A stretch of DNA of 64,000 nt from Nemertoderma westbladi (taxonomy: Eukaryota > Animalia > Xenacoelomorpha): the NCBI GenBank assembly GCA_032718475.1, contig JAUCBJ010008490.1, positions 1 to 64,000 of the forward strand, written 5' to 3'. Shown in pieces: positions 22,821-53,332 of this stretch. Made by a program: the position numbers and the translations under genes. Under the pieces are notes generated by a model. It searched no databases, was not told where the DNA came from, and saw nothing but the letters and a program-made list of their open reading frames with translations. The stretch's first letter is position 1; each line of letters begins with the position of its first letter.

Positions 22821-25800
22821 TTAATGGTCGTGCAATAGTGGGAAAAAGGCAAGATCAGGAGTAGACCTACTGGTTTCTGGGAGTTCCAGGCAGCAAACTT
22901 TGGTTAACCGGTTTGGGTGTAGAATAACATGATGTTCAGATGTTTTATTTTCAGTTTTATAAATTCCAAGATTTACAGAACTGGTTGGAAATTCGAAGAG
23001 TGGGAACAAAGCCCCAAATCCGACCATTACACATTGGATTGCTAATGTGAGCTTATGTTGTAAAATAAAAATAACTTTATAGAATGATTTTGTTTCACTA
23101 CAGAACACAATATTGTCTGGAAACTTTGTTGTAATAATAAATTTGTATGATTCAACAGCAGAATAACCATTGAAATCCAGTTCGTATTCAACTGGCAACC
23201 TTACAGTAGTCTTACTGCACACAAAGTTTGTATCGACATCGAGAGCAACTGGGCGTCCACCAACAGTCATATTATAATACGAAAGTTCTTGAATTCTGCG
23301 ACAGAGCTGAGGTAATGGTTTAGCATAGGATCGTACAGTTCGCTTTATTTGATATAAAAAAGATTCGAACCGAAACGCTGATATATTGGACAATGTGCCA
23401 TGTAATTTTACATCACCTGCAAGATGAATCAGCGAGTGCATATTGTATGAAAGAAATACTGGTGAATAAATTTGTGGAACTAATGTAACAAATTTACGCA
23501 GAAGTTTGTCAGCATAATCTACAACATCAATATCAAAGCATGTGCTTAACAAGCGAATTGCAACATGCAGACAAAGGAAATGTTTATATTGTTCTTCTGG
23601 AAGTATCCCTTTAACCACAACGGGCCCAGTATACAGTAAGAATTGTCGAAATTCAGTCGCTTTCCATCTATCAATAAATACCAAGGAGCGAGGTTTTCTG
23701 GCAAATTCTCGTGGCATAACTATCGATTGTAAATGGTGTGACATTTGAACGATTTCATCAGAGTGACATTTAATGAATGACTTCCCTCTAACCCAACCCC
23801 TCAATAACTTTCGCATAACTCCTAAATATACCTGATGCATAACATCAATGGGAAACTGTTCAACCATTTTGATAGGCAGCTTTTCCAAAATTGAATATCC
23901 AACATGATGCTGCCCATCAGCTTTTACTCTAAAAGATTGGTCCGTTCGTTGGTCTGCATTAACTTTAACAAATTTAACACTACCCCCTACATATGTACCT
24001 TTACACGAAGTGGGGCCTTCGCGCAGCACGTGAAATGAGTTAATGCTAAGTATCAACTCGAAAGGATTATAAAAACATAGGAGAAGATTTTCCCGGAAAA
24101 CGTTAACCCTCTAGCGGGAGACTGGGTAACTGAAGAAGGAAGGATTAGTTTCCCTACAAAGCCACAGCCTATGGTCTATTACATATCTACCAAGTTTCCG
24201 ATTGACGGATCATAAATAACGAAATGTTGGAAGGTTTTCACTTTCATACATTTAGCCCTCTAGCGGCATATTAAAGAACTACGGATCGATCACCTTCCTC
24301 ACAAAGACGAGGCATGTGGTCTAGTACATACCGGTACTGTATATTCCAAAATTCAGCTTAAATAGATTAAGATCAAGGAATTCGTGAAGGTTATCACTTT
24401 CCTACATTTCGCCCTCTAGCGGCAGACTCGAAAACTCCGGACCGATTACTGTCCACACAAAGACTTAGGATGTCTTCTAGTACATATATGACAAGTTTCA
24501 GCTTGATCAGATCATAAATAACTAAATGGGAGATTAATTTCACTTTCGGGACATTTTGCCCTCTAGCGGCAGACTGGAGAACTGCAGACAGATTAGCCTC
24601 CTTTGAAATTTACAGCTAATGGTCTAGTACATACTTCCCAAGTTTCAGCTTAAACGGATTAAAAGCAAAGAAATGGGTGGCCATTTAATGTTTAGACATG
24701 TGGCCCTCTACCGGCAGACTGGAAAACTTCGGACCGATTACAATCCACACAAAGACTCAGGATGTCATCTAGTACATATATGACAAGTTTCAGCGTAATC
24801 AGATCATAAACAACTAAATGGAAGAATAATTTCACATTCGGGACATTTCGCCCTCTAGCGGCAGACTGGAGAGCTGCAGACAGATTAGCCTCCTTTGAAA
24901 TTTACAGCTAATGGTCTAGTACATACTTCCCAAGTTTCAGCTTAAACGGATTAAAAGCAAAGAAATGGGTGGCCATTTAATGTTTAGACATGTGGCCCTC
25001 TACCGGCAGACTGGAAAACTTCGGACCGATTAAAATCCACACAAAGACTCAGGATGTCATCTAGTACATATATGACAAGTTTCAGCGTAATCAGATCATA
25101 AACAACTAAATGGAAGAATAATTTCACATTCGGGACATTTCGCCCTCTAGCGGCAGACTGGAGAACTGCAGACAGATTAGCCTCCTTTGAAATTTACAGC
25201 TAATGGTCTAGTACATACTTCCCAAGTTTCAGCTTAAACGGATTAAAAGCAAAGAAATGGGTGGCCATTTAATGTTTAGACATGTGGCCCTCTAGCGGGA
25301 GACCATTGCACTGATGGTGTCTGAAAGTCTCTCAAAAATCTCAACTTTTGCTCATATTGATACCTACAAATTTTCAACTTGGCAGCTTTAAATCCGACAA
25401 AGTTATTAGCATGTCAAAATCGTAACGACGACAACGATTTCACTTTCAGACCTTTGGCCCTCTAGCGGCAGACTGGAGAACTGCAGATGGATTCGCCTCC
25501 TTTGAAAGTCACAGCTAATGGTCTAATACATATCTGCCAAGTTTCAGCTTAAACGGATTAAAAGCAAAGAAATGGGAGGGCATTTAATGTTTAGACATGT
25601 GGCCCTCTAGCGGGAGACCATTGCACTGATGGTGTCTGAAAGTCTCTCAAAAATCTCAACTTTTGCTCATATTGATACCTACAAATTTTCAACTTGGCAG
25701 CTTTAAATCCGACAAAGTTATTAGCATGTCAAAATCGTAACGACGACGACAACGACGACGACGACAACGACGACGACGACAACGACGACGACGACGACGA

Positions 25801-26971
25801 CGACAACTATTTGCATAAATTGACCCACCCCCTAACAGTGTCAATTCGCTAAGGCTCCGCCAACTTCGTGGCTCGCCCCACAACAACATTTGTCACAACC
25901 ATAGTACCCAGAATGTGACTTTATTCGCAGAATATAGGTTTTGGCCGGATAATCGCAAACAAAATTCTGAAGTTTAAGTGAGATTGAAAATTTCCCAACT
26001 ACAATTTGCTGAGTTAGTAACAGCTGCAGCTCATTTACAAGGTCTTCGAGAAACATATTCACATCATTAGGCTTGCATGGACCACAGTACAAACCAAACA
26101 CTGCTGGGTAAGACTGAACACCATTAGGTGTTGCTTTGTAGTGGAAGTCACCTAAAATAGGCCAAAATTCTGTACTTGAACTGGTGAAGAGAGGCAACCC
26201 ATCTATATTGATACAAAGCCAAATAACAACTTTATTTTGATTATCAGATTGTGCAGATCCACCTAACCTACGAAATACATGTTCTTGATTACAAAAGTTG
26301 ACAAGATGGGCCTCAACCCCAAAATACGTGTACCAACCAGTGCCTATATTTTTAAGTGACGGTTTATTGCGCGGCGTTTTTAGTAATGTCCTAGCATCAG
26401 TTGGTCCTAGCTTAGTTCTCAGCGATAAGCGTTCATCATCAGACTCTGCTTCCATAGAAAGTTGTAAATTGTGAGAATGGTCCGGTGTGGGACTACTACT
26501 GTTGTAACTGCTCACACTAGAATCTGAACACTGCAAGGACTCATCAGAACTGCTTTCAATGACACTGCAAGAGTCTGGCACAAACAAATTACCTGGAATA
26601 TTTGCATCACCTTGAAAGGCATCTCTCTGAACATTGGGCAAATTTTGACATTGAGCTATATCAGTAGAACTTGTAATAATTGTATTTGTTGACACTGGAA
26701 TACTGATGGTATTACAAGGAGAGTATACAGAAATAGTTGGGATGATGGGAGAAGTAACAGCACTGGCAGTAGCGGTTGTAAAGGATTGTAGAGTCGTAGT
26801 GGTTGTTTCACTACCAAGAACAGTAATATTGTTCTCATTACTTGTTTCTAAAAATAATTCAGAATCATCCAAATTCGACAAATTAGCAATGATTGATCGC
26901 GATGATCGCCATGCTCTATTTCTCACCGTACTGTTACATACATATTTGGTATGCTTCGAAGAAGAGGACAT
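22821..26971 (-). pseudogene. EnSpm/CACTA-type transposase split by an insertion (26971-25883 plus 24005-22821 = 757 aa)
   Basis: Motifs DARTLLKTP, INIDGLPL...FWPILG, VCDYPAK, HSGYYGCDKC, PIDVMHQVYLGV, WKATEFRQFLLY, YNMHSLIHL, SAFRFES; removing 24006-25882 restores one frame (GCDKCCCKGTY). Confidence 0.92.
24006..25879 (-). mobile_element. Non-autonomous GGGGCGAGCC-family element (Helentron/HINE-like) with an internal ~146/292-bp tandem array and a (CGA/CAA)n microsatellite
   Basis: Boundaries fixed by the interrupted transposase frame; ACA on both flanks; dimer units at 24558, 24850, 25142; microsatellite 25741-25806. Confidence 0.85.
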
Positions 26972-29900: not shown

Positions 29901-30849
29901 CTGTAGAACCGGACTGGTAGCAACTGCCAACTACAGAACTACCGGTACGGTACCGGCAACCGGTACTGAACTACGGCAGAAAATGAATTTCTTCGTTTGC
30001 GGTTTCTACTCTTGTTAACGGTTAAATATATTAATTAAAGACTATGTATTGGTAATTGGTACGACCGACGGCACCGGCAACTGGTATAATCAGATGTAGA
30101 TGTACATACCAATCTGCCAATACAACAATAGCAATAGGCCTACCCCTACCAACCATCCATCGACTCGGCAACTGCAACAATGGAAGTTATGCGGACTAAC
30201 CAGCTGACCGGCATTCTAAGATCAGGTACCCACTACCAGAGTCTACCCAGCTGCCCAGAAAAGTGTTGGAATTGAAATCAAACAACTCACCACCAAGGCC
30301 GCCTCTGTGTGTTGTGTTGACCTCGACTTTCGGTATCGCTGCCGCTACGGGCAAACTGGACTAACCGAAACCAAGGATGAAATAATCCGGTTTTTTAATC
30401 TCACTCTGCCATCACCCAGTGCCTGGCGGTGTTGAAATTGACACGCATTGTACAAGCAGTAGGCCTATTGCTCCGAGTTTCCGGCTGGTCGGGTGCAACT
30501 ACTGCATCTACAGATCTACATTGCCACACTATAACTCGGGCTCATGAGGACGAGTACTGCGTAGACTATATTCCTATAAACCAAAACCATACCTGGCTTC
30601 GCCTATTGAACGCATTATAAAGATCGTCAGTCTTCGTTTAGGAAAGATATTTAAATACAAAACAGGACGAGCACAACAAGACTTATAATGAAGACGAGTA
30701 CTGCGTTGACTATTATTATTATATAAACCACCTGGCTTCACATATTGAACGCATCCCTTGTTATTATTATTATAAATATCGTCAGCCTGCGTTTAAGAAA
30801 TATATTTAAATACAAAACAGGACGAACTCAATGAGGCTTATAATGAAGA

Positions 30850-32337
30850 TTTACACAATACAAGATATTACAAAAATTAGGCGAGTTTGGATTCCACAAC
30901 ACTGCTATCTCTATGCTGCGCACTTTTTTAGTAAACAGATATCAAAGAGTGAAACTCAACGGAACCACTTCTGAGTGGAAACTAATCAATCACGGAATTC
31001 CACAGGGAACACTCCTTGGCCCGATTATATTTTTAATGTATGTAAATTCCATAGCTAGCAAAAGTAAACTCCAACTAATCCAATATGCAGACGACACCTT
31101 AGTATACTGTCATGATAAAAATCCAAACAGAGCTGCAATATCATTGAGTAAACACATAAATGAACTAAAGGACATTTTTAGCTATTTGCACCTCAAACTA
31201 AATAACGATAAGACTGAATTCATGTTAATATCCCCAAATTCTAGAACAGACGAGATAAATAGCATACAACTGGATCTCAGTGAGGATACAAATAAACAGA
31301 CTAACATTCCACAATCTACACACATCAATTACCTTGGTCTAACCATTGACAACAAACTTGAATGGCGCGAACAAATTAAGATCACCTCAAATAAAATGAT
31401 CCAGGCCGTCTCTGGACTTCGGCAGATAAAGGGTCAGCTACCAGTAGGCACAAAACTAAATATTTATAAGGCTACAGTATTACCATACCACAATTACTGC
31501 TGTGAAGTACTAGTATCATTGCATAATGTCCACGGCTTTAAACTATCTTATATAGCTTAGAGAAAATACAAAACTATGGACTTCGCATTGTCCATAGCAA
31601 AAAGATTTCTGATATTTCTGGCACCGAATTACGTCGTCTATCAAAACTACCAACACTAAGAGCCCTTAGGGAATATTTTGCTTTACGATTTTTTTATCAA
31701 TATATATTCAAAATTACCAAACCATTCCAAAACTTAGAACTACCATTTATTAGCAACAGTCAGAAACAACTATTAAACCCGAGAACGAATAAAGTAAAAA
31801 TTCCAATAACGAAAAACACAATATCATACAACAGCGCTATGTTAAGTTTTGCACGCCTATGGAACTGCACAAATAAAACACTAACACTCCTAAGGCAATA
31901 CAAGGAATTCATGCGCGCGTTAAAAAAACACTTTCATACAAAATACGACAGAAATGCAATTACATAACTTCAACTATTCACATTTAGGTTACAATTATTC
32001 AACCGCTTTTTAACGAACAGTATTATTAACTGCCACTAGCCCTACATTGCAACCTGCTATACTTATTGGTGATTATTATTTATTGTGCTGTTATATTAGT
32101 GTCAATTACGATTGTGTGTGTATGAGTATGTATAAATATATTTGAGTGAGTGTTTAATACTAGTAGTATGTATTGTAGCATAGATTTAGATTTAGAACAA
32201 ATAACGTGCGGCTGCTGACGCTTATTCATCACCAATCATCAGCCATGTCTGGGCCATCCAGACGGGCTGCCTCCATATGTTTTTTAAACATCGGAGTTTT
32301 GATGAATAAAAGATTTTAACTAACTAACTAACTAACT
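30850..32337 (+). mobile_element. 5'-truncated CR1/L2-like LINE (RT pseudogene 30850 to ~31966) with (AACT)n tail
   Basis: GIPQGTLLGP, QYADD, KTEFM, YLGLTIDNKLEW; LEKIQNYGLRIV follows a frameshift near 31555; aataaa then (aact)5; flanks rejoin as the tandem-repeat unit. Confidence 0.88.
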
Positions 32338-34502: not shown

Positions 34503-35839
34503 TATTATATTAATAAATCATAATGGAGTAATTAAATTCAGTTCGAAATTCCCGCCACCTAAATAAAGCAAAAAGTCTCCAGAATAAAATATATATTTAT
34601 CCAAACTTACATAAAGTAAAAAGCTAATCGTGTCTCTAAGTAGCTCTCTTACTATTATTATAAAAACAAAAACCCCAAAACGCTCAGTTTCTACTCAGTA
34701 TAACAAGTAAGGTAATATACGGCCAAACACACATTAGCAACCCCTATATGTGTACTATCCATTCCCAAAAATATTCAATATGCGCGCTGCTCGTTAAGTA
34801 AGTTAGATTAAGGTTAGGTTAATGAATAGGTCTAACTGTAGATTATGCAATGTATAAGTTTAAGTGCAAACATAAGTAATATTGAAAATAATGCATAAAA
34901 CAACAGATTAAGACAAACCAAAAACATTCAGTATGCGCGCTGCTCGTTAAGTAAGTTAGATTAAGGTTAGGTTAATGAATAGGTCTAACTGTAGATTATG
35001 CAATGTATAAGTTTAAGTGGAAAAATAAGTAATATTGAAAATAATCATAAAAACAACAGATTAAGACAAACCAAAAACATTCAGTATGCGCGCTGCTCGT
35101 TAAGTAAGTTAGATTAAGGTTAGGTTAATGAATAGGTCTAACTGTAGATTATGCAATGTATAAGTTTAAGTTCAAAAAAAAATAAGTAATATTGCAAATA
35201 ATGCATAAAAACAACAGATTAAGTCAAACCAAAAATATTCAATATGCGCGCTTCTCGTTAAGTAAGTTAGATTAAGGTTAGGTTAATGAATAGGTCTAAC
35301 TGTAGATTATGCAATGTATAAGTTTAAGTGAAAAAATAAGTAATATTGAAAATAATGCATAAAACAACAGATTAAGACAAACCAAAAACATTCAATATGC
35401 GCGCTGCACGTTAAGTAAGTTAGATTAAGGTTAGGTTAATGAATAGGTCTAACTGTAGATTATGCAATGTATAAGTTTAAGTGGAAAAATAAGTAATATT
35501 GAAAATAATGCATAAAAACAACAGATTAAGACAAACCAAAAACATTCAGTATGCGCGCTGCTCGTTAAGTAAGTTAGATTAAGGTTAGGTTAATGAATAG
35601 GTCTAACTGTAGATTATGCAATGTATAAGTTTAAGTGAAAAAATAAGTAATATTGAAAATAATGCATAAAACAACAGATTAAGACAAACCAAAAACATTC
35701 AATATGCGCGCTGCTCGTTAAGTAAGTTAGATTAAGGTTAGGTTAATGAATAGGTCTAACTGTAGATTATGCAATGTATAAGTTTAAGTGGAAAAATAAG
35801 TAATATTGAAAATAATGCATAAAAACAACAGATTAAGAC

Positions 35840-36377
35840 TGTGACGGGATCCAGGAGGGATCCCGATTTATCCGATGTGGTATTTAGTCCACGCGTCCCC
35901 GCCGTGTATAAGAGTGAAATAAAGATAACTGAGTTCTGAAGTTCGGTGTATAATAATAGGTTATAGGATATAGATATATTGTGAATTATACGGTAGGCGG
36001 GATACGGTAACTAAAGTCCCGTGATCCCCTAACTAAACTAATTGACTGTACCCTACGCTAGCACTGCTGCACTGAGATAACTGAATCACTGATTAATAGG
36101 TTATTGGTTATATTGCACGGTGGCCTTACTGCTACTCAATCGATGCCATTCCCCCCTCTGATTGGTTAGTACCCTTGTTGGCGCCCCGTGGAGTATTCCC
36201 GTTCACTCCACCTGTTCTCCTTGGGTTAGGGGTTTGGCCCCTGACCCTCTATTGTGTGCTTCCTTCCCACTCTCATTGGGATGGCACGAGTTGGTTAATT
36301 GCCCAATCTCGTGGCTCCCAATATTGCTTATCGGCTAATAACTTTATGGGGTGTTGGCGGGATTGAATAAGCTAACA
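35840..36377 (-). repeat. BEL/Pao 3' LTR
   Basis: Direct repeat of 46523-47060, adjacent to the purine tract. Confidence 0.97.
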
Positions 36378-37089
36378 CTCCCCCCCCATGCTATCTTCCC
36401 GGTAAGAAGATAGCATCAACCAAAAAAGTGCGCTACAATCCCGCTGGATCCCGATCTCGTATCGGGTGTGGGGTGGAATTCTTTTCTCTTGGAGCCGGCT
36501 TTCCAGGCCGCCCCCTATGGGTATGATAACGCTACCCTGTGTGCCTGGCGTCTCATGTCGGGCCGATCGCGCTCACCTCTTCACGCGATTTTTGTTTCCC
36601 CAACACTTTCGCCCTACCTCCCCTCTACTCTCACCCTAACTCTCTCATACCCCCGGACCTCCTCGTCCCTCACTCAGCCTCTTATTCTCCCCCCCCCCAC
36701 ACTAGAATTGCGTTCGCACTCTCTCCGCACTTCACTCTATCACTTCGATCCTCAACCTCACTTCGACTGTTTTATCTTTCCTGACGAACCTCCCCCCCCC
36801 CTCTCGTGCCGTCGCACTCGAGAAGTGTGAAATTGTCAGTTGTCTCGTCCATAGTGCCATAGTCAATTGTCCCCCAGTCCCAGTAGCTAATTGAGAAAGG
36901 TTGTATGACTATAGTACTTACTCCAAACGTATGTATTTTACTGCTAATCACTACGTACGTACATACGAATTGCACTTATATGGTTATTTGCATTAATTAA
37001 ATTTATACTTAATAGTTCGTACGTTACATGCGGCGCCTTCCAGGCGCACCACTTCCCAGTCTCAGTCTCATTCCCTCGTCTCCGGGAAC

Positions 37090-39624
37090 TTATCTGTTCC
37101 TCCTCACGTCCTCTTCCCTGGCCCGTTTCTTGGTTATCACCGCTCCTCTGGCATCATCCGCTTTCTGCTTCCGGACCTTCGCTGCCACTTCCTTGCTGAT
37201 CCCGGTCGTCGGCTCCTTGGGCGCTGGTGTTATTAAAGCCCGATACCGCTTCGCCGGTGGCCCCTCAGAATGGCCTGGTTGTCTCCCTCGTGTGGCGTCC
37301 CATAGGATCATTTTCATTGCCTTTGGTACGTGTTCCGCCAAGAAATCCCTAAACTCCCTCCGGTTCTCTGGTGTCCACCTGTCCAGGTACCGTTGCGTGT
37401 TCATAACTCCGGCGAACGATGCCGCCGTAGCTACCTCTTGATAGGTAAACGGTAACCTTCGCTTTATGATTTCCATGTGGGTCTCCTGGTTTATGAGGAA
37501 GAAACCCCACTTGAACTCTTGGGCCTTCATGCGCTGGCGCGTCATGGCCCCGACGTCGGCCCACTCCTCGAACCTCGTGAACTTCTCCTCGTCGCTCATC
37601 CAGTCGCACTCGCGTCCGTAGTGTCCCCGAAAGTGGCACTTTGGACATCGGTTATGCAACCGTGGACACGCCCCCATCCTGTGACTTGGTTCTCTACAAT
37701 AGAGACAAAAGGTTCCCCGTTGGAACCGGTATAGGCAGCTGCTTTCCCGATGGGTCTGTCTCCCACAGTAGTCGCAGCCGAGTACCAATGTCTCCCGTCC
37801 CACCTCGTCTTTCGTCCCAAGCGATCTCCGCGGTCTATGGAGTCGCTGGTAGGTGAACTTCTCTACGTTGCTCTCCCTGTTTACGTCTATCTCTCCGCCC
37901 CTTTCGGGCATCGTCTCCCCGAATACTATCCGTGGTGCCGTTCCCGGTTGCTCGCCCAACCTGATGGTGCTCCCCGCGAAATCCATCGCCGGCCCCTCGT
38001 GCACCCAGGTCCGCTTGCCGGATCTGTTCCAGAAGGCCCTTGCCCCACTGGCTGTCACCACCCTTCCGCCAACCCAGTCCGTGTCCGAGTGGCCTATCCT
38101 CTCGATGGGCGGTATCTCTCCGAACTCGTCGTCGCCGTCTTCCTCTTCTGGTAGTGTTTCCAACCCCGGTATCCCGATGGATCCACTATGTCCCTTCCCG
38201 CCTTGGCTCTCGCCCGTAGCTCTCCATCCCTCTAGCTCCCTTAGCTTCCTTGGCGGTTGGTCGCCCTCGGCGCCCGCTGGCATGGGCATCGTTTGCAACC
38301 CCGACGTCGACTGTTTCGGCGATCCCACCGTCCATCCCAATTCTCGCCCTAGAGACTCCCCCGAACTCCCTGACGAAGTCCAATGAAGTTCGTCTAGGCC
38401 CGCCTGCTCCTCGAAGCCGTAACTCTGTGCCCTGGCCTCCTCTTCCCTCTCCTCTGCTTCTATCCTCTCCCGTCTAGCGACTTCTTCCAGTCGCTTTGCT
38501 TCTCGTCTGTCCGCCTCTAGCTGCTCCCATCTCTGATACGGTGTATCTGTCTCCCCGTCTACCAGATGTCGGCTGTTGTAGTACACCGACTCGCCCTTCA
38601 GCCCCGGGTGGTCTACCAGACCGTCAAAGGCCACTTTAAAGGCTCTCCTGTAGCTTAGGGGTGATCCCGATAACAGAAATGCCCCTGGTTCCCTTTCGAT
38701 AACTACGGTCATGAATAAGTTAAGCAAACTTATCATCATCCAGTCCTCCTGCAGGATATATCGCTTCTGATATACCTTTATCGCTCCTCTGCGAAACTGA
38801 TATACCTCCTGCTTTCCCGGTCTCGCTCCCCACTTCAGCGAGTTCGCTAGTTCTGCTCCGTATTCTTCCCTAAACTTCCCCCAATCCATTGGTTTGTGGC
38901 ATACGAGCCCCAATAATTGGCCCATCGCCACCGCCCCGCATTGGCCTGTGTTTTCGACCACCCCCAATCCATCCGGTGCCGTCATAGCCATAAAGACTTT
39001 CTGCATATCCAGGAGGTTGGTGGCGTCCGGACCGATGATCCTCTCCGCGTCCTCGCGAATCGCCGATCCCACTTTCGTCGTCGACTTCTCTCTTACTAAG
39101 ACTTGTACCGCTTTCGGCAATCGGTCTAATTTCGGCCCGTCCTTCTTCCCATACGTCCCTAGGTCGAATAAGAAGATGTCCCCATTTGGCGCTGCCAAAT
39201 GCAAGAGTATGGTCCTGGCCGACCCTGCCGTTCCTCGTCTCGAACCCGCTTCGTCTTCCACGGTTCCCTCGTCATCTAGGATCATATATCCTCCTCTGTT
39301 GACGGACTCTATGAATCTTTTCCAGTCCTTCCTCGGCGATTCCCTCGGATACTTCGGAATCCCGAACTTCGCCTCGTCTCCTTTCACCACGTAGTGGAAG
39401 TGTTGGAAGATCGCGTTGTCCAGCGACGGCGTCCCGTAGGTCCCGACCAACCGCTGTTCGTGCGCCTCCCGGAAGTGATCCTGCAGCGCTCGTGCCGCGT
39501 GACCCCTTTCCAACCTCTCGTAGTATCCTCTCGTCTTCTCCTCCGGGTGTCTTTCGGTGAAATCCACCAATATTTCTTTTCCTCCTGACTCCGCCTTTCT
39601 CTTCCTGATCAGCTTACTCGCCAT
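37090..39624 (-). CDS. Extra ORF (~844 aa from ATG 39624): DEDDy-like 3'-5' exonuclease domain, coiled coil, disordered linker, three CCHC zinc knuckles
   Basis: ILDDEG; LLHLAAPNGDIFLFDL; LPKAVQVLVREKSTTKVGSAIREDAERI; LLDMQ; YQKRYILQED, following the WRN/EXD2/Mut-7 exonuclease pattern. Knuckles CDYCGRQTHRESSC, CLYCREPSHRMGAC, CPKCHFRGHYGREC. Confidence 0.8.
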   Translation of the reverse strand: MASKLIRKRKAESGGKEILVDFTERHPEEKTRGYYERLERGHAARALQDHFREAHEQRLVGTYGTPSLDNAIFQHFHYVVKGDEAKFGIPKYPRESPRKDWKRFIESVNRGGYMILDDEGTVEDEAGSRRGTAGSARTILLHLAAPNGDIFLFDLGTYGKKDGPKLDRLPKAVQVLVREKSTTKVGSAIREDAERIIGPDATNLLDMQKVFMAMTAPDGLGVVENTGQCGAVAMGQLLGLVCHKPMDWGKFREEYGAELANSLKWGARPGKQEVYQFRRGAIKVYQKRYILQEDWMMISLLNLFMTVVIEREPGAFLLSGSPLSYRRAFKVAFDGLVDHPGLKGESVYYNSRHLVDGETDTPYQRWEQLEADRREAKRLEEVARRERIEAEEREEEARAQSYGFEEQAGLDELHWTSSGSSGESLGRELGWTVGSPKQSTSGLQTMPMPAGAEGDQPPRKLRELEGWRATGESQGGKGHSGSIGIPGLETLPEEEDGDDEFGEIPPIERIGHSDTDWVGGRVVTASGARAFWNRSGKRTWVHEGPAMDFAGSTIRLGEQPGTAPRIVFGETMPERGGEIDVNRESNVEKFTYQRLHRPRRSLGTKDEVGRETLVLGCDYCGRQTHRESSCLYRFQRGTFCLYCREPSHRMGACPRLHNRCPKCHFRGHYGRECDWMSDEEKFTRFEEWADVGAMTRQRMKAQEFKWGFFLINQETHMEIIKRRLPFTYQEVATAASFAGVMNTQRYLDRWTPENRREFRDFLAEHVPKAMKMILWDATRGRQPGHSEGPPAKRYRALITPAPKEPTTGISKEVAAKVRKQKADDARGAVITKKRAREEDVRRNR

Positions 39625-40133
39625 TCCGAACACTACACTCGCTCACCTGTAGGGTGGTGCCTTACCAAGGCGCAATACAGATGAGTGATGTATTAAGATG
39701 TTTCGTACAGTTCGATAATGGCCTACTTTTCTACTTAACTGCGCCTTTCAAGCTTAATTTAATCTAATTAATTTCGGAGCTAGTAAATCAGCCTAATTTA
39801 CAATTTCCGTCCGTTACTTTTATTATGTTCTAGAACGACTTTCCTTGTGTTACCACTATTTTTCGATTTTTAGCCCTATTCTATTTATTTATTTATTTTG
39901 CTTTGATTCTACTGTCCTACTACTTACTACTGCCTATGGATTTATTCTATTCTCTGATCCATATTCTGGCCTACTCTGTGGGCCTATGCAGTACAGCAGT
40001 ATGCGTCGTGTGGCCACACGATTTATCCAGCTGCACTCATATGCCCCCCTCTCGCTACTAACTCTACTTACTGCTAACTAATATCTATATCCTATTTACC
40101 CCTTTTACCTCTTACTCTCTCTCTCTAACTAAT

Positions 40134-41180
40134 GGTACTACGTACCCTCTAACTCTAACTCTAACTAGGTACTACGTACCTACTAACTCTCTAACTATCG
40201 GTACTACGTACCCTCTAACTCTAACTCTAACTAGGTACTACGTACCTACTAACTCTCTAACTATCGGTACTACGTACCCTCTAACTCTAACTCTAACTAG
40301 GTACCACGTACCTACTAACTCTAACTATCGGTACTACGTACCCTCTAACTCTCCAACTATCGGTACTACGTACCCTCTAACTCTAACTCTAACTAGGTAC
40401 TACGTACCTACTAACTCTCTAACTATCGGTACTACCTACCCTCTAACTCTAACTAGGTATTACGTACCTACTAACTCTAACTATCGGTACTACGTACCCT
40501 CTAACTCTCCAACTATCGGTACTACGTACCCTCTAACTAACTAACTAACTCTAGGTACTACGTACCTACTAACTAACTAACTATCGGTACTACGTACCCT
40601 CTAACTCTAACTAACTATTGGTACTACGTACCCTCTAACTCTCTAACTATCGGTACTACGTACCCTCTAACTCTAACTAACTATTGGTACTACGTACCCT
40701 CTAACTCTCTAGCTCTAGGTACTACGTACCTACTAACTAACTAACTTTAGGTACTACGTACCTACTAACTAACTAACTAACTCTAGGTACTACGTACCTA
40801 CTAACTAACTAACTATCGGTACTACGTACCCTCTAACTCTAACTAACTATTGGTACTACGTACCTTCTAACTCTCTAGCTCTAGGTACTACGTACCCTCT
40901 AACTCTCCAACTATCGGTACTACGTACCCTCTAACTAACTAACTAACTCTAGGTACTACGTACCTACTAACTAACTAACTATCGGTACTACGTACCCTCT
41001 AACTCTAACTAACTATTGGTACTACGTACCCTCTAACTCTCTAACTATTGGTACTACGTACCCTCTAACTCTCTAGCTCTAGGTACTACGTACCTACTAA
41101 CTAACTAACTTTAGGTACTACGTACCTACTAACTAACTAACTAACTCTAGGTACTACGTACCTACTAACTAACTAACTAT
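40134..41180. repeat. Array of ~32 GGTACTACGTACC hairpin motifs separated by variable CTAA/CTCT spacers
   Basis: Counted directly; lies between pol and the extra ORF inside the BEL element. Confidence 0.95.
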
Positions 41181-41287
41181 TATTTTTATTTTATTTTATT
41201 TTTATTTGTGTGGGAAGGGCGTCTCGCCCTCAATCCCACCCCCCTCAGTCCAAAACTTGGACGACTAAACTCCACTCTAACTCCGCT

Positions 41288-44240
41288 CTAAGGTGCTCCT
41301 TCTAAGAGACAGCATTTACCTACTGCTCTCCTGTAGGTTTTTCTGTCCTTCGCACCTATCTTTCCACCTATCCGCACTTCTACCGATCGGACTCTTCCGT
41401 CCTCGTCGGAGTAGGTGCCTACAACTCTCGCCAACCGCCATTGGTTGTTGATGATAGTATCATCCGTGACGATTACGAGATCTCCCTCTCTCAACTCCCT
41501 GTTTGGCTTCCTCCACTTGCTTCGCTTATGGAGCGTGGGTAGGTATTCTTCTACCCACCTCCTCCAATACTCTGCGCTTATTGCTTTAGCGACTTTCCAA
41601 CTTTGGCGGGAGTGTATGTCATCTGGGTCTACACCCCGCATATCGATGGTCGCTGGCCTTTCCATCAGAAAATGGCTAGGCGTCAACACGTCTAATGACT
41701 CAGGGTCATCATTCTCCGGATATAGCGGTCTGCTATTAATTATCCCCTCGCACTTCGCAAGTACTGTCCGTAAGACGTCCTCAGTGACCATGTGGGTGTT
41801 CATTAACTTCGTCATTAGACGCTTTGAACTGCCCACCAGTCTCTCGACGCATCCTAGTGTATGTGGTGCATACGGCGTCCTTCTCTCCCACTTTACTTGT
41901 CGTCTTCTCATGGCCGCCCTGACTTCTTCTCCTTCTAAGATGTCCAAGGCTTCTGCCATCTCGCTCTCTGCGCCCACAAAGTTGGTGCCGTTGTCGCTGT
42001 ATATCACTGCGATCGTCCCACCTTTGCGGTCCCTAAACCTTTCTAAGGCGTTAATGAATGCTGATGCGGTTGCATCTTGGGCGAGTTCTATCCCTACCGC
42101 CCGCGTATTGTTGCATACGAAGATAATACCGTAGCGTTTCTCCGTGTGTCGCATCACCTTGATCTTTATCGGCCCGAACATGTCCACACCGCAATGCGTA
42201 AATGGCGGGTCGTGCTGTCTTACCCTACTCGCCGGTAGTGGCGCCATCTCCTGTACGGCTCGTTCCTTCTTCGCTCGTCGGCAGGTCTGGCACTGCCCCA
42301 CTACCGCTTTAACCTTCTTCCTTAGTTGTTTGACCCAATAGGTCCTCCTTATCTCTGTGAGGGTTCGGTTGGTGCCCCCATGCAGTATCGATTTGTGGGA
42401 GTCCCATATGATCTGGTGGACTATAGGCGATCCTGTGGGAATGATGATGGGTTTCGGTGGCACGACTATACTGTTGTTATATCCCACCCTAGAATTCATT
42501 ACTAGAATCCCATCCTTGTTGAGTTGTGGCGACAGCGTGATCAACTCGCTGTCCCGTCGGAGGTGCTGTTGGTTGCCGACACGTTCCACCTCGTCGCCGT
42601 AGTTCTTCCGTTGTTCATAGCGGATTATTGCCTTGGATGCTCCTTCCAGATCTATGATTGTCCTGATCTTCTTGTCCTTGCCGACTCCCGCAAGGAAATT
42701 CCCAAAGGCTCTCCAGTACGCCACTAGTTTCTTGGTCTTATACCAACTAGAACTGTAGCTGAGGAGTTTATCCGTCGGGTTATTGCACAGTTCCCTTCCT
42801 GGTTGCACGTCCCTAATCTCCCTCACCATCTGGGAGTGTATCTCTTCTCCCTCCGAATCTCCCTCTTCTCCTTCTGATACTACTTCCGAGCCCGGGTCCA
42901 CCTTCCTCATCGGCGGCCAGGCCTCCCTATCACTTAGAAATCGTGGCCCATGTTGCCACAATGCTTCCTTCTTTAAGAAAGTGTGGCGTTCCACGCCCCT
43001 CGACAGCAAGTCCGCTGGGTTCTCGTCTGTTGGGCAGTAGTGCCACCTTTCCAGTTCTGTGCTCGCCCTTATTTCGTCCACTCTATTTGCGACGAATATC
43101 GGGTACCTCGTCTTTTCGTTGTGTAGCCAACCAAGCACTACCATGGAGTCCGTCCAGTAGTGTGTCTCCACTATGTTGGGAATTGTATCCACTAGGTAGG
43201 CTGTGGCCCTAACTCCTAGTCTCGCAGCTGTCAATTCTAACTTGGGAACAGATGCTGAATCTGGCGGCGTTGACTTAGCTTTGCTAAAGGCTAGTCTGGG
43301 CTCGTGAGCCCCCTCTCGTTGTACTAAATAGAGTGCCGCTCCGTATGCCTCTAACGACGCGTCGGAGAACATATGTAGGTCCAGATTCGTCATGTTCCCG
43401 TCCGGGAAATATACTCGCGGCATGTTATATGTTCCCATCCTCTCCAAGTCTCCTGTCCATTTGCTCCACTGTTTCTTGATGTCTTCTGGTACCTCTACGT
43501 CCCACTCATCCTTCAACTTATATACTCTCTTGAGTATCTGTTTCCCCGTGACTAGTAATGGGGATGCTAGGCCTAGGGGATCGTATATCCTTGCTATATA
43601 CGATACATAACCCCTCTTCGTATGGGTGTCTGCGCCCTCTTGGCTCAGCTGATACTTCAGTTCGTCTGTTCCTCTATCCCACACGATTCCCAATGCCTTT
43701 TGCTGCGATTGTGTTCTCTTATTCGCCATGTCCTGTCCTTTGGCTGTTGTAGGGTTGTCCATGGTCGATTCCGGTTTCTTGTCCTCTATTGCCCTGATAA
43801 ATTCTTCTGAACTGGATTGGAATTTGGTCAGGTTGAAGCCGGATCCTTTCAGGATGTCGCGAACCTCGCGCCCTGTTTCCAGTATCTCCTCAACCGTATT
43901 TCCAGACTCCATGCCGTCGTCTACGTAGAAGCCGCGTCGGATCATATCGACGGCCCTACAGCTGTATCTATCTTCCTTGCCCTTTACCGTGTCTCTCACT
44001 GCCATAGTCGTCGTAAATGAGGACGACTTGGCCCCCATATTTTGTACTACCATCTTATACGCTGGTATTACCGGCGGTTCTTCTTCGCCGTTATACCATA
44101 AGAAGCGTTGACTGTCACTATCTTCTTCCATTACACGTACCTGGTTGAACATGCCTTCTATGTCACACGTGAAGGCGTGTTTCCCGTTTCGAAACCTAAG
44201 TAACACCTCTATGCCTATTACCTATTTTGGCCCTCGCATT
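41288..44240 (-). CDS. pol: BEL/Pao pol: RT (N-terminally deleted), RNase H, integrase
   Basis: VLLRFR, CDIEGMF, FYVDD, YDPLG, FSDAS, PKLEL, FVANRV, NPADLLSRG, integrase H-H-C-C, GVDMFGP, SDNGTNF, VERLV, W..EYL, WRLARV. Confidence 0.95.
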
Positions 44241-46444
44241 ATCCGCTGACGGCTGTGGGACACTCCTTGCCCCCCCCCCCCCCTCTCGCCGCTAACTTTC
44301 TGTTGTGGGGTGCTCGTAGCCCCCCCCCCCACTCGCTACATCTAACTTCGCTACCTCTCCCCCCGCTATTATATACCTCTCTAGTCGACACATCGACCCT
44401 ACTGCGGTCGGGTCCATTCACCCCCGCCTCTCCCTCTGCTATTGCGTGGCCTACCAGGCCCTCTACTCCCTGCCTACCAACTACGTGGCCTACCAGGCCC
44501 TCAGCTCCCTGTCTACTAACTACGTGGCCTACCAGGCCCTCTGCTCCTTGTCTACTAACTACGTGGCCTACCAGGCCCTCTGCTCCCTGGTTATGTAGGC
44601 CCGACGTGTTTACATTAATAACACCCATGTTGGAAACGGAATTATTTTGTTCGTTTGGGACAAGGTTATTTATATTATTCTGCACGATATCTGAATTATT
44701 TTGTAAATTCGGGCATAGGTCATTATTTAAATTATTCGAATTATTTTGCGTAATTGCGTTATTTAGATTATTTTGTAGATTCGAATCTGGGTTATTATTT
44801 TGATTATTTGAATTATTTTGCGTAGCTACATTAATATTAGAATTATTTCCTACATTAATATTGGGATTATCCTGATTTAAATTTAAATTACTACCACTAG
44901 GCAAAGCATTTCCTGTAATAAAGGTTTGATTAGTGTTGTCCCATACGGTATTGTCAATATTAACAACGTCTACTGTACCATCATTATTATTACCCCCCCC
45001 CGCCCGTACGGTCGCACCAGTCTTGAGTCTGTCGTGCGGTCCCTGTCACTGGGGTATTAATAAACGCATCTACTGTCCCCGGCCCCTCGAGAATATTCGA
45101 GCCAGCCTCGCTCTCAGACGCCCCCATCTGCGCCAGTTCCAGTTCGCGCATGTGTCTAGCTTTGTACTCTACAAACCCACTTTGTTGTTTCTCTAATTTC
45201 CTTCGCTCATGCTCCCTTCTGGCCATTCTCACCTCACACTCCCGCGCGTCCTGTTTGGCCAACTCTACCACTCTCCTAGCTTCCTCCCTTCGCCTTGCCT
45301 CACGCTCCTTGCGTTCCTTCTCCCCCTTTGCCTCACGCTCCTTACGTTCCTCTTCTTCTATTTTCTCATACTCCCTAAGGCTCCTTGCGGCCCTTTCGGC
45401 CCTCTCTCTTATCTCTCTAATCAACACCATTTCCCCCTCTAGCAGCACTCTCTCCTCCTCTAATCGTCTATCTACTTCTTGTTGACCTTGCACTGCTAGA
45501 TTGAGATGGTACCTAGCGTCTATCTCTCTCACCCGTCTTTCTTTCGCGGAGGATGTAGCAGACTTATCGGTTGTGACGGATTTCCTCCGCCTCCCCGATC
45601 TACTAACTTTCCCCCTCCTCCCGGAACTCCCTCCGACCGACGAGACCGAATCCGCGGGGTCAACCTCGGATTCGCCCTCCTCAGGTCTGTTCCAACCCAC
45701 TGGTTTTACTCCCCGGGCATCGATTAAGTATGGCCCTATGTACACTGACGCTACGCTGGGTCCCATACTCCCACACTCCCATAGTTCAAACAGTTCGCCT
45801 GCAATTCCTTTTGCTCTCTCCCCGGCTAGTTCTCTCTGCCCAAAACGTATTAGGTAATTTAAGTGTCTATCCGACTCACCTAGTCGCTTTCTCAGTCTCA
45901 CCTCGTCTACCTTCGCCCCTTCCTTCTTGGCGTCGTTTATCAGCTTCCGGGTCGCGTTGTAGGCCCGTCGAAGTCGCTCAGAAACCCCGACGTCCTCGTC
46001 GCCGACCTCTCCTCCGTCCCTCCGGGTTCGACGTCGTACCGGCGGCTCCACCGTCGCCGTTCCGGTGGGCCGTCCGTCGCCCTCGGCCTGTAGCTGGCCG
46101 GCGACATCGGTACCGATCTCTCCTCCGTCTCTTCGTGTCCGGCGTCGCACCGTCGGCCCCACCGTCGCCGTTTCGGTGGGCCGCTCGTCGCCCTCGGCCG
46201 GTAGCTGGCCGGCGACATCGGCGCGCCGTTCTCCGTCCCGTGTCGACTCATCTCCCTCTCCCTCCGTCTCGCTCTCTCTCTCTCTTGGCTCGACTTCGGG
46301 TTCCAGGCCCCCCTCATCCTCAATTTCCGGTTCGCCCGTTATCGATGGCTCCGGCGTCGTGGGCCTGTATCGCTTGGTCGCGGCCTCGCGGATCGTTTGA
46401 TCTTCGCCCGGGGTCCGCGTCGGTGTCTCGCCCGATTCACTCAT
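44241..46444 (-). pseudogene. gag: N-terminal gag region of the BEL element (low complexity, coiled coil, Asn-rich); gag core and protease deleted
   Basis: ORFs 44990..46444 and 44239..44904 join across a homopolymer near 44995; PADSVS motif seen in Pao gag N-termini; no knuckle or DSG protease before RT; TAG stop at 44222-44224. Confidence 0.75.
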
Positions 46445-46522
46445 CTCGTTTGTGGCTGATGATTCGGCTAGCTAGGTTGCAGTTCTTAGAGTTTAACTAG
46501 GGCGGCAGCTCGATTTAGTTAC

Positions 46523-47060
46523 TGTGACGGGATCCAGGAGGGATCCCGATTTATCCGATGTGGTATTTAGTCCACGCGTCCCCGCCGTGTATAAGAGTGA
46601 AATAAAGATAACTGAGTTCTGAAGTTCGGTGTATAATAATAGGTTATAGGATATAGATATATTGTGAATTATACGGTAGGCGGGATACGGTAACTAAAGT
46701 CCCGTGATCCCCTAACTAAACTAATTGGCTGTACCCTACGCTAGCACTGCTGCACTGAGATAACTGAATCACTGATTAATAGGTTATTGGTTATATTGCA
46801 CGGTGGCCTTACTGCTACTCAATCGATGCCATTCCCCCCTCTGATTGGTTAATACCCTTGTTGGCGCCCCGTGGAGTATTCCCGTTCACTCCACCTGTTC
46901 TCCTTGGGTTAGGGGTTTGGCCCCTGACCCTCTATTGTGTGCTTCCTTCCCACTCTCATTGGGATGGCACGAGTTGGTTAATTGCCCAATCTCGTGGCTC
47001 CCAATATTGCTTATCGGCTAATAACTTTATGGGGTGTTGGCGGGATTGAATAAGCTAACA
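46523..47060 (-). repeat. BEL/Pao 5' LTR
   Basis: Direct repeat of 35840-36377, upstream of gag. Confidence 0.97.
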
Positions 47061-49716
47061 AAGACAAACCAAAAACATTCAGTATGCGCGCTGCTCGTTA
47101 AGTAAGTTAGATTAAGGTTAGGTTAATGAATAGGTCTAACTGTAGATTATGCAATGTATAAGTTTAAGTTCAAAAAAAAATAAGTAATATTGCAAATAAT
47201 GCATAAAAACAACAGATTAAGACAAACCAAAAACATTCAATATGCGCGCTGCACGTTAAGTAAGTTAGATTAAGGTTAGGTTAATGAATAGGTCTAACTG
47301 TAGATTATGCAATGTATAAGTTTAAGTGGAAAAATAAGTAATATTGAAAATAATGCATAAAAACAACAGATTAAGACAAACCAAAAACATTCAGTATGCG
47401 CGCTGCTCGTTAAGTAAGTTAGATTAAGGTTAGGTTAATGAATAGGTCTAACTGTAGATTATGCAATGTATAAGTTTAAGTGAAAAAATAAGTAATATTG
47501 AAAATAATGCATAAAACAACAGATTAAGACAAACCAAAAACATTCAATATGCGCGCTGCACGTTAAGTAAGTTAGATTAAGGTTAGGTTAATGAATAGGT
47601 CTAACTGTAGATTATGCAATGTATAAGTTTAAGTGGAAAAATAAGTAATATTGAAAATAATGCATAAAAACAACAGATTAAGACAAACCAAAAACATTCA
47701 GTATGCGCGCTGCTCGTTAAGTAAGTTAGATTAAGGTTAGGTTAATGAATAGGTCTAACTGTAGATTATGCAATGTATAAGTTTAAGTTCAAAAAAAAAT
47801 AAGTAATATTGCAAATAATGCATAAAAACAACAGATTAAGTCAAACCAAAAAGATTCAATATGCGCGCTGCTCGTTAAGTAAGTTAGATTAAGGTTAGGT
47901 TAATGAATAGGTCTAACTGTAGATTATGCAATGTATAAGTTTAAGTGAAAAAATAAGTAATATTGAAAATAATGCATAAAACAACAGATTAAGACAAACC
48001 AAAAACATTCAATATGCGCGCTGCTCGTTAAGTAAGTTAGATTAAGGTTAGGTTAATGAATAGGTCTAACTGTAGATTATGCAATGTATAAGTTTAAGTG
48101 GAAAAATAAGTAATATTGAAAATAATGCATAAAAACAACAGATTAAGACAAACCAAAAACATTCAGTATGCGCGCTGCTCGTTAAGTAAGTTAGATTAAG
48201 GTTAGGTTAATGAATAGGTCTAACTGTAGATTATGCAATGTATAAGTTTAAGTGGAAAAATAAGTAATATTGAAAATAATGCATAAAACCAACAGATTAA
48301 GACAAACCAAAAACATTCAGTATGCGCGCTGCTCGTTAAGTAAGTTAGATTAAGGTTAGGTTAATGAATAGGTCTAACTGTAGATTATGCAATGTATAAG
48401 TTTAAGTTCAAAAAAAAATAAGTAATATTGCAAATAATGCATAAAAACAACAGATTAAGTCAAACCAAAAAGATTCAACATGCGCGCTGCTCGTTAAGTA
48501 AGTTAGATTAAGGTTAGGTTAATGAATAGGTCTAACTGTAGATTATGCAATGTATAAGTTTAAGTTCAAAAAAAAATAAGTAATATTGCAAATAATGCAT
48601 AAAAACAACAGATTAAGTCAAACCAAAAACATTCAGTATGCGCGCTGCTCGTTAAGTAAGCTAGATTAAGGTTAGGTTAATGAATAGGTCTAACTGTAGA
48701 TTATGCAATGTATAAGTTTAAGTGGAAAAATAAGTAATATTGAAAATAATGCATAAAAACAACAGATTAAGACAAACCAAAAACATTCAGTATGCGCGCT
48801 GCACGTTAAGTAAGTTAGATTAAGGTTAGGTTAATGAATAGGTCTAACTGTAGATTATGCAATGTATAAGTTTAAGTGGAAAAATAAGTAATATTGAAAA
48901 TAATGCATAAAAACAACAGATTAAGACAAACCAAAAACATTCAGTATGCGCGCTGCTCGTTAAGTAAGTTAGATTAAGGTTAGGTTAATGAATAGGTCTA
49001 ACTGTAGATTATGCAATGTATAAGTTTAAGTGGAAAAATAAGTAATATTGAAAATAATGCATAAAAACAACAGATTAAGACAAACCAAAAACATTCAGTA
49101 TGCGCGCTGCACGTTAAGTAAGTTAGATTAAGGTTAGGTTAATGAATAGGTCTAACTGTAGATTATGCAATGTATAAGTTTAAGTTCAAAAAAAAATAAG
49201 TAATATTGCAAATAATGCATAAAAACAACAGATTAAGACAAACCAAAAACATTCAATATGCGCGCTGCTCATTAAGTAAGTTAGATTAAGGTTAGGTTAA
49301 TGAATAGGTCTAACTGTAGATTATGCAATGTATAAGTTTAAGTTCAAAAAGTAAGTAATATTGAAAATAATGCATAAAAACAACAGATTAAGACAAACCA
49401 AAAACATTCAGAATGCGCGCTGCTCGTTAAGTAAGTTAGATTAAGGTTAGGTTAATGAATAGGTCTAACTGTAGATTATGCAATGTATAAGTTTAAGTTC
49501 AAAAAGTAAGTAATATTGAAAATAATGCATAAAAACAACAGATTAAGACAAACCAAAAACATTCAATATGCGCGCTGCTCATTAAGTAAGTTAGATTAAG
49601 GTTAGGTTAATGAATAGGTCTAACTGTAGATTATGCAATGTATAAGTTTAAGTTCAAAAAGTAAGTAATATTGAAAATAATGCATAAAAACAACAGATTA
49701 AGACAAACCAAAAACA

Positions 49717-52205: not shown

Positions 52206-53330
52206 CAGGGTGTCCCATAAAATTTGTTGCTACTTTGAATTTATAAACTCCCACTTATGTTGGATATAATCGAAGTATTTTATATCAATTTAAAGCCAAT
52301 ATTCTAAATTAGATTTTGGTCTGTGTTGGAGTCACCATGTTGTCATGGAAACAAGATACAACCAATTGAATTCAAAAGCCAGATTATATACATTCGTAGG
52401 TGAGTGTTCTAGGCTTTTGTGTGTAATTATTGTATGAGAAAGTTAGTGTTGCTATGGAAATAAGGCTAACTACCATTTTGGTTTACTTTTGTATTTTAAG
52501 TTGGAACCATGTTCTCTGGTGAATAGAAAGTTTTTATTATAAAAACTTATTTTGAAACTAAGTCGTCCAAATTGACAGCTAGTACATTTGGACACAATTT
52601 TCCAAATCGGCTTCTTTCTTAAAAACGATTAAATTGTAAGATTCGTGAAAAACTTTTATCCGAATTCGGTTTCACCGGCTGGAAGACGCATTCGTGTTTC
52701 AAGATATATCATTGAGGCCCATTTTACCCAGAATCCCAAGACATCACTGAGGCGGGCATCATTATCATTAGCTGCACTCGTAGCAGTATTCAAAGAGTTG
52801 TTAAGAAACTCAAATTTAAACCTTATAAAATTCAGATCGTACATGCAATTCATAAAACGACTAACCAGACGTGTCAATAATGCGGCCCAGATATCGAACT
52901 TTCTAGAAACTAAACGATTCATTGGTCCATACATTTTTGATACACCAACTGTTACAAATGCTATTTATTTAGATTTGATATCTTTATTTTTTGTTCAGGA
53001 ATCCATCATATCGATATTGTATTCCATCAAGATGGTGCACCGCCACACTTGGAACTTCCCTTTAGGAATTATTTGGGCTGTCATTTTAACGGGCATTGGA
53101 TCGGCAGAGATGGACCAGTGTTGTGGCCACCACGCTCCCCGGATCTGACACCTTGCGATTTCTATTTATGGTGCCAAATTAAGAACTTGGTTTATAGCGA
53201 ACCGATTGAATCCTTGGCCCAACTTCGTCCTGGTGTTACTGAAGCCTTCAACGAAATAGCGAAAGCTTTACAAATAGATACAGATACAACAGCATTAAAC
53301 TTCAAGTCTAACTCTTAGACTACAAGTACA
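52206..53330 (+). pseudogene. Decayed Tc1/mariner-superfamily transposon (maT/rosa-like), right end lost
   Basis: TA|CAGGGTGTCCC left end; fragments MFSGE*KVFIIKTYFETKS, F.QNPKTSLRRAS, IGPYIF, HQDGAPPH, WIGRDGPVLWPPRSPDLTPCDFYLW in shifting frames. Confidence 0.88.
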
Positions 53331-53332
53331 TT

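Follow-up and report, generated by a model that had tools for sequence, protein, structure and literature searches.

A third gene with a predicted DEDDy exonuclease fold and a zinc domain in a lineage of BEL/Pao retrotransposons

Described systems and the BEL/Pao ORF3

Rodriguez, Kenefick and Arkhipova reported in 2017 that Gypsy-like Juno and Vesta elements and Terminons of bdelloid rotifers carry a third open reading frame (ORF3) encoding a DEDDy exonuclease (PMC5408684), and excerpts of two other papers cite it as the known case (PMC5718144, PMC6338049). Here, we analyzed a comparable gene in a BEL/Pao long terminal repeat (LTR) retrotransposon of Nemertoderma westbladi. The stretch analyzed, called the window throughout, comprises positions 1 to 64,000 (64,000 nucleotides) of contig JAUCBJ010008490.1 (assembly GCA_032718475.1), and the gene, also termed ORF3, lies on its minus strand. 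Like the rotifer ORF3, it is not an env gene, is located behind pol, encodes an RNase D-like DEDDy domain and has no membrane segments. Acid swaps in the active site exist on both sides (DEED in rotifers, DEED and DEDE here), and the functions proposed for the rotifer protein are the same as those considered below (PMC5408684). However, the rotifer elements are Gypsy-like or Penelope-like and their genes are recent, patchy acquisitions with intact sites (PMC5408684), whereas the BEL/Pao gene is marked by deep co-inheritance, a multi-knuckle zinc domain, repeated catalytic loss and a readthrough signal.

Because the rotifer case is already published, the novelty is narrower than the original prediction implied. 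DEDDy ORF3s were known in LTR retrotransposons (PMC5408684), and what is new is a DEDDy-fold ORF3 in BEL/Pao. No report of such a gene in BEL/Pao was found in the full-text literature, a scope that left out most subscription papers and Repbase/Dfam. The supplements of PMC3118150, which hold element sequences, and Repbase entries may contain unannotated members of the lineage. Non-env accessory genes of animal LTR retrotransposons are rare. The rotifer genes were left as a puzzle and the sign of selection on them was not measured; in the BEL/Pao lineage, selection on the gene is strong.

Trypanosoma brucei RNase D (PDB 7c42-7c4c) has the same order as ORF3, a DEDDy domain followed by CCHC knuckles, and its knuckles drive RNA binding and raise cleavage (PMC7797062, excerpt). 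It is a cellular guide-RNA trimmer with four knuckles and a linker of 28 amino acids (aa) (same excerpt), whereas ORF3 has a linker of up to ~300 aa, additional conserved His, Tyr and Arg residues and a post-knuckle module. The shared architecture is probably convergent.

Nibbler/Mut-7, EXD2, WRN, EXD1 and Egalitarian are host genes whose products have the same fold as the ORF3 domain. The exonuclease domain of Egalitarian is non-catalytic. EXD1 is likewise inactive (PMC5408684). Env-bearing BEL/Pao elements share the plan of a third gene between pol and the polypurine tract (PPT) (PMC8742986; excerpt of PMC3118150), but ORF3 encodes a soluble, basic protein with a zinc domain and a nuclease fold. 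In PMC8742986 and in the excerpt of PMC3118150, env is the sole third BEL/Pao gene listed and an exonuclease is not mentioned. A transposon-encoded DEDDy domain also occurs in Dada DNA transposons, where it lies within the DDE transposase and keeps its four acids (PMC3706591, excerpt).

Predicted fold, active site and zinc domain

ORF3 (37090-39624, minus strand; 844 aa) is open throughout, with no internal stop. It is placed 1.66 kb past the pol stop (41288) and 0.7 kb ahead of the PPT. The original prediction had described an uninterrupted frame of ~844 aa between pol and the PPT/3' LTR, and this frame was recovered with its motifs where they had been placed. The product consists of an exonuclease-fold domain (aa ~66-325; 38650-39429), a predicted long charged helix (aa 362-401; 38422-38541; predicted local distance difference test score, pLDDT, ~90) that is a possible coiled coil, a disordered linker, a zinc domain and a basic tail.

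We searched for relatives of the protein at several levels of sensitivity. With the single sequence, Pfam was blank for ORF3, PDB sequences were blank for the N-terminal domain, and word-indexed protein searches were blank. The last remained blank when the family alignment was the query, so these results reflect the sensitivity of the searches. An exhaustive HMMER search gave 73 matches at E ≤ 0.001, mostly over the zinc region (P0043, a 14-fold repeat protein, was excluded from all family counts), and the N-terminal domain was also present in 32 of the 38 matches of at least 450 aa. All 20 homologues that were looked up carry either no name or the label ‘hypothetical’. With a profile built from 31 members, matches were obtained to EXD2 (E 3e-11) and to WRN, Egalitarian and trypanosome RNase D; DNA_pol_A_exo1 was matched by 5 of the 31 members at E ≤ 1 (best 6e-5). 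Atlas placement of aa 60-350 was near a 3'-5' exonuclease cluster (score 0.94; the family is assigned to 34% of the cluster members).

Alignment-free folding of ORF3 gave a pLDDT of 37. In the AlphaFold model made with the alignment, the nuclease core block reached mostly 80-93, with lower values in loops, and the zinc domain ~90. Among the Foldseek matches listed, all those at E ≤ 0.001 were RNase D-type domains, the top one being T. brucei RNase D (E 5e-6). Structure comparison (VIA) placed a Nibbler domain first (Z 13.9, root-mean-square deviation 3.9, 204 residues aligned) and a second Nibbler domain close to it (Z 13.7); WRN reached Z 13.0, Egalitarian Z 12.6 and EXD1 Z 11.5. Sequence identity to the Nibbler/Mut-7, EXD2, WRN, EXD1 and Egalitarian domains is 11-21%. 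The predicted model and the profile match (E 3e-11) agree on an RNase H-like fold of the DnaQ type, so the DEDDy-type fold claimed from the letters alone is borne out at the level of prediction. An RNase D/WRN/Nibbler-type fold is thus a well-supported prediction, and no single donor stands out; Nibbler, WRN, NrnC and RNase D fall within ~1 Z unit of each other. The fold searches bear on the nuclease region and not on the zinc domain.

The protein does not resemble env. A membrane anchor was not found in ORF3 (highest 19-residue hydropathy 1.3), nor was a fusion-protein fold, and the fold searches returned nucleases, in agreement with the initial reading of the gene as something other than env. 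Basic clusters stand at both ends (aa 6 and aa 832), as had been noted for the NLS-like IRKRK and KKRAR. Basic clusters occur in 35 of 38 long homologues, and a hydropathy of 2.0 is reached by one of the 38.

The active site is less regular than the fold. ExoI-like (39282-39265) and ExoII-like (39075-39049) motifs lie as predicted, with D117 (39276-39274), E119 and D192 (39051-39049) in conserved columns. The ExoIII-like motif (38769-38743) proved to be Y-x3-E and not Y-x3-D: Y289 is followed by E293 (38748-38746) in the canonical Asp column, D294, chosen earlier, is one position off, and Glu is also found in 5 other members. The window ORF3 site, D-E-D-Y-E, may be weakly active or inactive. 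We then classified 92 exonuclease (EXO) domains, a count that includes near-duplicates: 35 have the full DEDD site, 9 have Asp/Glu swaps, 3 lack one acid, 34 lack two or more and 11 are partial. Tyr occupies the ExoIII position in 31 of the 35 full sites. The losses of catalytic acids are clustered by clade, with 6 changes on a quick tree with long branches and at least 3 events by its supported branches. Two loci (L047, L059) have a long ORF3 with the zinc domain and no EXO match. These comparisons show several losses of catalytic residues within a fold that remained conserved. The ‘nuclease’ of the original prediction stands as a fold and is weakened as a core function, because large clades without catalytic residues (dead-site clades) keep the gene under selection and the window copy itself has Glu at ExoIII.

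This pattern bears on the proposal that ORF3 serves reverse transcription as a nuclease, by proofreading or by processing the primer. The 35 full sites among 92 domains and the unusual primer-site region of the window copy would be in accord with it. However, clades with dead sites look young, are intact and remain under selection, and primer processing in particular, which had been put forward for this gene, is weakened because the primer site, of the ordinary TGG type, does not differ between elements with intact and with dead sites. We regard this role as very improbable.

The zinc domain shows the opposite behavior. Three perfect CX2CX4HX4C (CCHC) knuckles are present at aa 617-673 (37606-37776), as had been seen; in 20,000 protein shuffles, a single knuckle appeared once and more than one never. 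They are part of a larger conserved zinc domain that the earlier reading missed. Of 73 aligned rows, 70-73 retain the residues C640, C643, H648, C653, C660, C663, G667 and H668; Y642, L656, H657 and R666 are conserved as well, and a post-knuckle module follows (aa 678-735; 37420-37593; pLDDT ~90 to aa 700) with the pattern F-E-x2-A-x2-G-x2-T-x2-R...WG (F685, E686, A689, G692, T695, R698, W706, G707), and then Y728. In the alignment, this Cys/His domain is the near-invariant part of ORF3, far more constant than the catalytic site. It has no matching Pfam family, and an atlas search with it gave scores of 0.85 or less throughout. ORF3 is not a replacement for the nucleocapsid, because complete relatives retain their own Gag knuckles.

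Co-inheritance with pol and candidate functions

We explored the linkage of ORF3 to pol with a degenerate zinc-motif pattern, which matches 58 of 74 proteins and has one match in the window and none in 100 shuffles. In metagenomes, the pattern found at least 120 loci, 80 of them with flanks, on which the linkage counts rest; as the loci are anchored on the zinc motif, the counts do not give the share of BEL/Pao elements that carry ORF3. The family profile was matched by 78 of the 80 flanked loci (L014 and L071 are chance motif matches). A BEL pol on the same strand was found upstream in 35 of the 39 loci with at least 3.5 kb of upstream sequence and in 41 of the 78 loci listed overall, and the BEL score exceeded the Gypsy score in all 41 linked pol sequences. 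The linkage to BEL pol thus extends beyond the window copy. Complete relatives encode a Gag-Pol of 2,000-2,400 aa with BEL domains. In a viral contig set, the zinc motif was unmatched and pol relatives were absent, hence no ORF3-less BEL outgroup came from there.

Three records (L008, L032, L072; >99% identical) represent the same locus, a dead-site ORF3 relative that is apparently split by a small inverted-repeat insertion. In L005, L015, L043 and L051, very long extensions of low complexity at the N terminus bring the ORF3 frames to 1,300-1,600 aa.

Trees of the integrase, EXO and zinc domains agree for the 30 elements that have all three (Mantel ρ 0.85-0.86; 0 of 999 permutations). Of 9 supported EXO splits, 8 are shared with the integrase tree, and there are no conflicting supported splits. 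The integrases are divergent (identity minimum 23%, median 38%; 26 groups at 80%). These results show a long vertical co-inheritance of ORF3, an old accessory gene, with its BEL/Pao lineage; the agreement of the trees does not prove functional co-evolution.

Selection was then estimated at two depths. ORF3 is covered by thousands of diverged host-species contigs (7,877 in one set; depth is not copy number). Among the best 40 of 549 variants, 33 fall in ORF3, with 23 synonymous changes and 10 replacements (P ~1e-6), and 9 of these replacements lie in the linker. Of 34 indels, 12 were listed, and the one within ORF3 is 3 nt long. Between related elements, pN was below pS in 19 of 19 pairs. Omega ranged over 0.036-0.53 in the 16 EXO pairs that were not saturated, and two pairs of dead-site domains gave 0.036 and 0.10; these values are rough since synonymous sites are near saturation. 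These patterns indicate purifying selection on ORF3, dead-site domains included.

It might be supposed that ORF3 is a neutral capture of a host gene or a degenerate env, given that it stands at the env position and that single-sequence Pfam and PDB searches were blank. This explanation has a negligible probability and was rejected: the linkage is conserved, the trees are congruent, selection is purifying, no membrane segment was found and a nuclease fold is predicted. A capture confined to a single copy was not seen either; dozens of divergent pol-linked elements carry the gene under selection. The linkage, the divergent integrases, the agreeing trees and pN below pS all argue that ORF3 is no one-off capture.

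The junction between pol and ORF3 was compared across the 41 pol-linked loci. In 10 of them, the ORF3 frame continues past the pol stop with no other stop; the stop is TGA in all 10 and the next base is C in 9. ORF3 is in frame in 12 of 15 loci (14 with TGA-C and one with TGA-G; P 3e-4, the loci not being independent). Six of these junctions, selected for their gap-free alignment, have in common a bulged stem beginning 9 nt past the stop, in which 96% of cells pair and 10 of 14 pairs change on both sides; none of 500 shuffles matched this, and at slid positions pairing dropped to 36-48%. The UGA-C and stem-loop lie at L007:1234-1290, L065:6736-6792, L068:5645-5701 and L037:6645-6701 and in relatives. 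An invariant short motif is located within the bulge. No Rfam match was found for the stem-loop in the 3 loci searched. Firth et al. (2011) described type II readthrough, with UGA-C(GG), a spacer of 8-9 nt and a compensated stem, from alphaviruses, plant viruses and kelch, and the excerpt of that paper (PMC3159437) mentions no retrotransposon. The open frame, UGA-C and covarying stem of one subclade match such a signal, and readthrough itself is predicted.

We suggest, with a probability somewhat below one half (about 0.45), that the ORF3 product acts on the RNA or the particle of its own element as an RNA-binding cofactor, for which 3'-end trimming is likely optional. The near-invariant zinc domain, a fold that persists with or without catalysis, the basic clusters, the absence of a membrane segment and the likely Gag-Pol fusion in one branch lead to this reading. 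The zinc domain would bind element RNA, as the CCHC domain of trypanosome RNase D does, and the exonuclease fold would grip a stem-loop or a 3' end. Full-site lineages would trim the gripped end; dead-site lineages would only hold it, like the non-catalytic EXD1 and Egalitarian folds. The genomic RNA could in this way be protected, transported or packaged. One subclade would make ORF3 partly as a Gag-Pol-ORF3 readthrough product and so load it into particles; the window lineage would require a spliced or internal message.

Several observations weigh against a cofactor of this kind. The AlphaFold model was built on 31 sequences and has a predicted template modeling score of 0.46. The best structural matches are domains of Nibbler, a small-RNA trimmer, which fits an anti-silencing role equally well. 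Despite very deep divergence, 35 of 92 domains retain the complete DEDD site, which means that catalysis is of importance to the lineages concerned. A PPT-side hairpin as a general RNA target was not supported (z below -2 in 3 of 34 sequences). Particle loading is not supported as a general feature, because the readthrough arrangement is absent from the window copy, with its 1.66-kb spacer and tandem array, and from 26 of the 41 pol-linked loci. Where the arrangement exists, conservation of the linker as a peptide was not supported, and a Met of its own is available to ORF3 13-187 codons past the readthrough stop. Four long loci have no BEL pol upstream, and in the locus recorded as L008, L032 and L072 none was found in 1.7-1.9 kb upstream.

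The protein could also be a trans-acting suppressor of small-RNA silencing, which trims or sequesters PIWI-interacting or small interfering RNAs or, in dead forms, acts as a decoy for Nibbler- or EXD1-type partners. We consider this, the main rival reading, unlikely, although it deserves weight: Nibbler EXO domains lead the structural matches (Z 13.9 and 13.7) with EXD1 also listed, related contigs number in the thousands in the host species and so suggest that the family is successful, and accessory suppressors are described in other transposons (VANC, excerpt of PMC6719617; TRAS helicase, excerpt of PMC6338049). However, with Nibbler, WRN, NrnC and RNase D within ~1 Z unit, the fold does not point to piRNA work, and action in cis is the better fit for a protein fused to integrase by readthrough. 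Suppression on a broad scale is expected to be harmful to the host, and the known cases are narrow (PMC6719617, excerpt).

Action at the DNA stage is a third possibility, and a quite unlikely one: ORF3 might, as a module linked to integrase, carry the pre-integration complex into the nucleus, steer integration (for example to satellites) or polish the ends of complementary DNA. Retroviral-type knuckles usually bind single-stranded RNA, which counts against this, and ORF3 is encoded separately in most lineages. In one subclade, ORF3 follows directly on integrase through an in-frame UGA-C junction; this and the basic clusters in 35 of 38 long homologues would suit a DNA-stage role, as would the insertion of the window copy within a satellite array, although this is one site only. 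WRN-type folds can act on DNA (PMC5408684).

Returning to the RNA cofactor, a broader picture can be offered more tentatively. The elements may constitute a BEL/Pao lineage, ancient and widespread, that is defined by a small-RNA counter-defence or RNA-escort protein of its own, with a Nibbler-like fold and an undescribed zinc domain, which changed repeatedly from nuclease to pseudonuclease and in one branch is delivered into particles by programmed readthrough behind integrase. Strong selection on the gene, matched natural pairs of intact and dead sites, elements that lack the nuclease domain and a defined signal for expression, a stem-loop without an Rfam match, make the role of a retroelement-encoded DEDDy protein directly testable, and the answer may be a silencing suppressor encoded by an animal transposon or an RNA escort like Egalitarian.

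The window copy and its surroundings

The element in the window is an 11.2-kb minus-strand LTR element at 35840-47060. Its 538-bp LTRs (3' LTR 35840-36377, TG...CA; 5' LTR 46523-47060) differ by 2 mismatches in a pairwise comparison, the target-site duplication is 5 bp (35835-35839 and 47061-47065), and the PPT is at 36378-36387 on the minus strand, with a comparable tract 3' of ORF3 in many relatives. A perfect 11-bp hairpin adjoins the PPT (36388-36416). The pol remnant (41288-44221, minus strand) encodes part of the reverse transcriptase (RT), the Pao RNase H (Peptidase_A17), integrase and DUF5641 in the order of Pao-type pol. Pfam matched Peptidase_A17 (E 2.5e-40), DUF5641 (E 4.9e-24) and integrase, and the first two are present in pol of 7 of 7 relatives tested. 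The assignment to BEL/Pao made at first sight is therefore upheld.

At the gag position, there is a first ORF of 484 aa (44990-46444, minus strand) with no Pfam match and no match to the Gag of relatives, and an Asn-rich, repeat-rich open frame (44239-45045, minus strand) adjoins the internal deletion. No Gag core, Gag knuckles, protease or RT start was found in the window copy, whereas complete relatives have the Gag core, Gag knuckles and protease. All 11 complete relatives align to it only from ~44,250 downwards, and a profile spanning these relatives from the Gag core to the RT start had no further match elsewhere in the window. The window copy is an internally deleted BEL/Pao derivative and not a complete member. 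It is young and, because the Gag core, protease and RT start are deleted, was probably mobilised in trans, and recently.

The primer-site position (46514-46522, minus strand) does not start with the TGG of a tRNA primer site, which is found in many relatives. These 9 nt, which follow the 5' LTR, are the complement of LTR position 363-371 (46690-46698), and such a 9-mer recurs in 38 of 20,000 shuffled LTRs. This single case is a hint of self-priming. The non-coding spacer between pol and ORF3 (39625-41287, minus strand) holds a 32-bp-period tandem array at 40121-41180 with palindromic cores. The element interrupts an array of 153-154-bp satellite units (34765-35839), which resumes at 47061-49716.

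Other features of the window include a minus-strand open frame of 392 codons cut by the window edge (2-1177; Pfam blank), two LINE-type reverse-transcriptase fragments (6636-8468 and 30847-31557) and a Gypsy-type element (9842-14518) with a Gag-protease ORF followed by RT-like and integrase-like frames. Inverted repeats of 213 nt are located at 16718-17428, and CACTA-like remnants with weak Transposase_21 and DUF4218 matches at 22824-26971. A long satellite array with a unit of 30-32 bp extends over 53212-64000.

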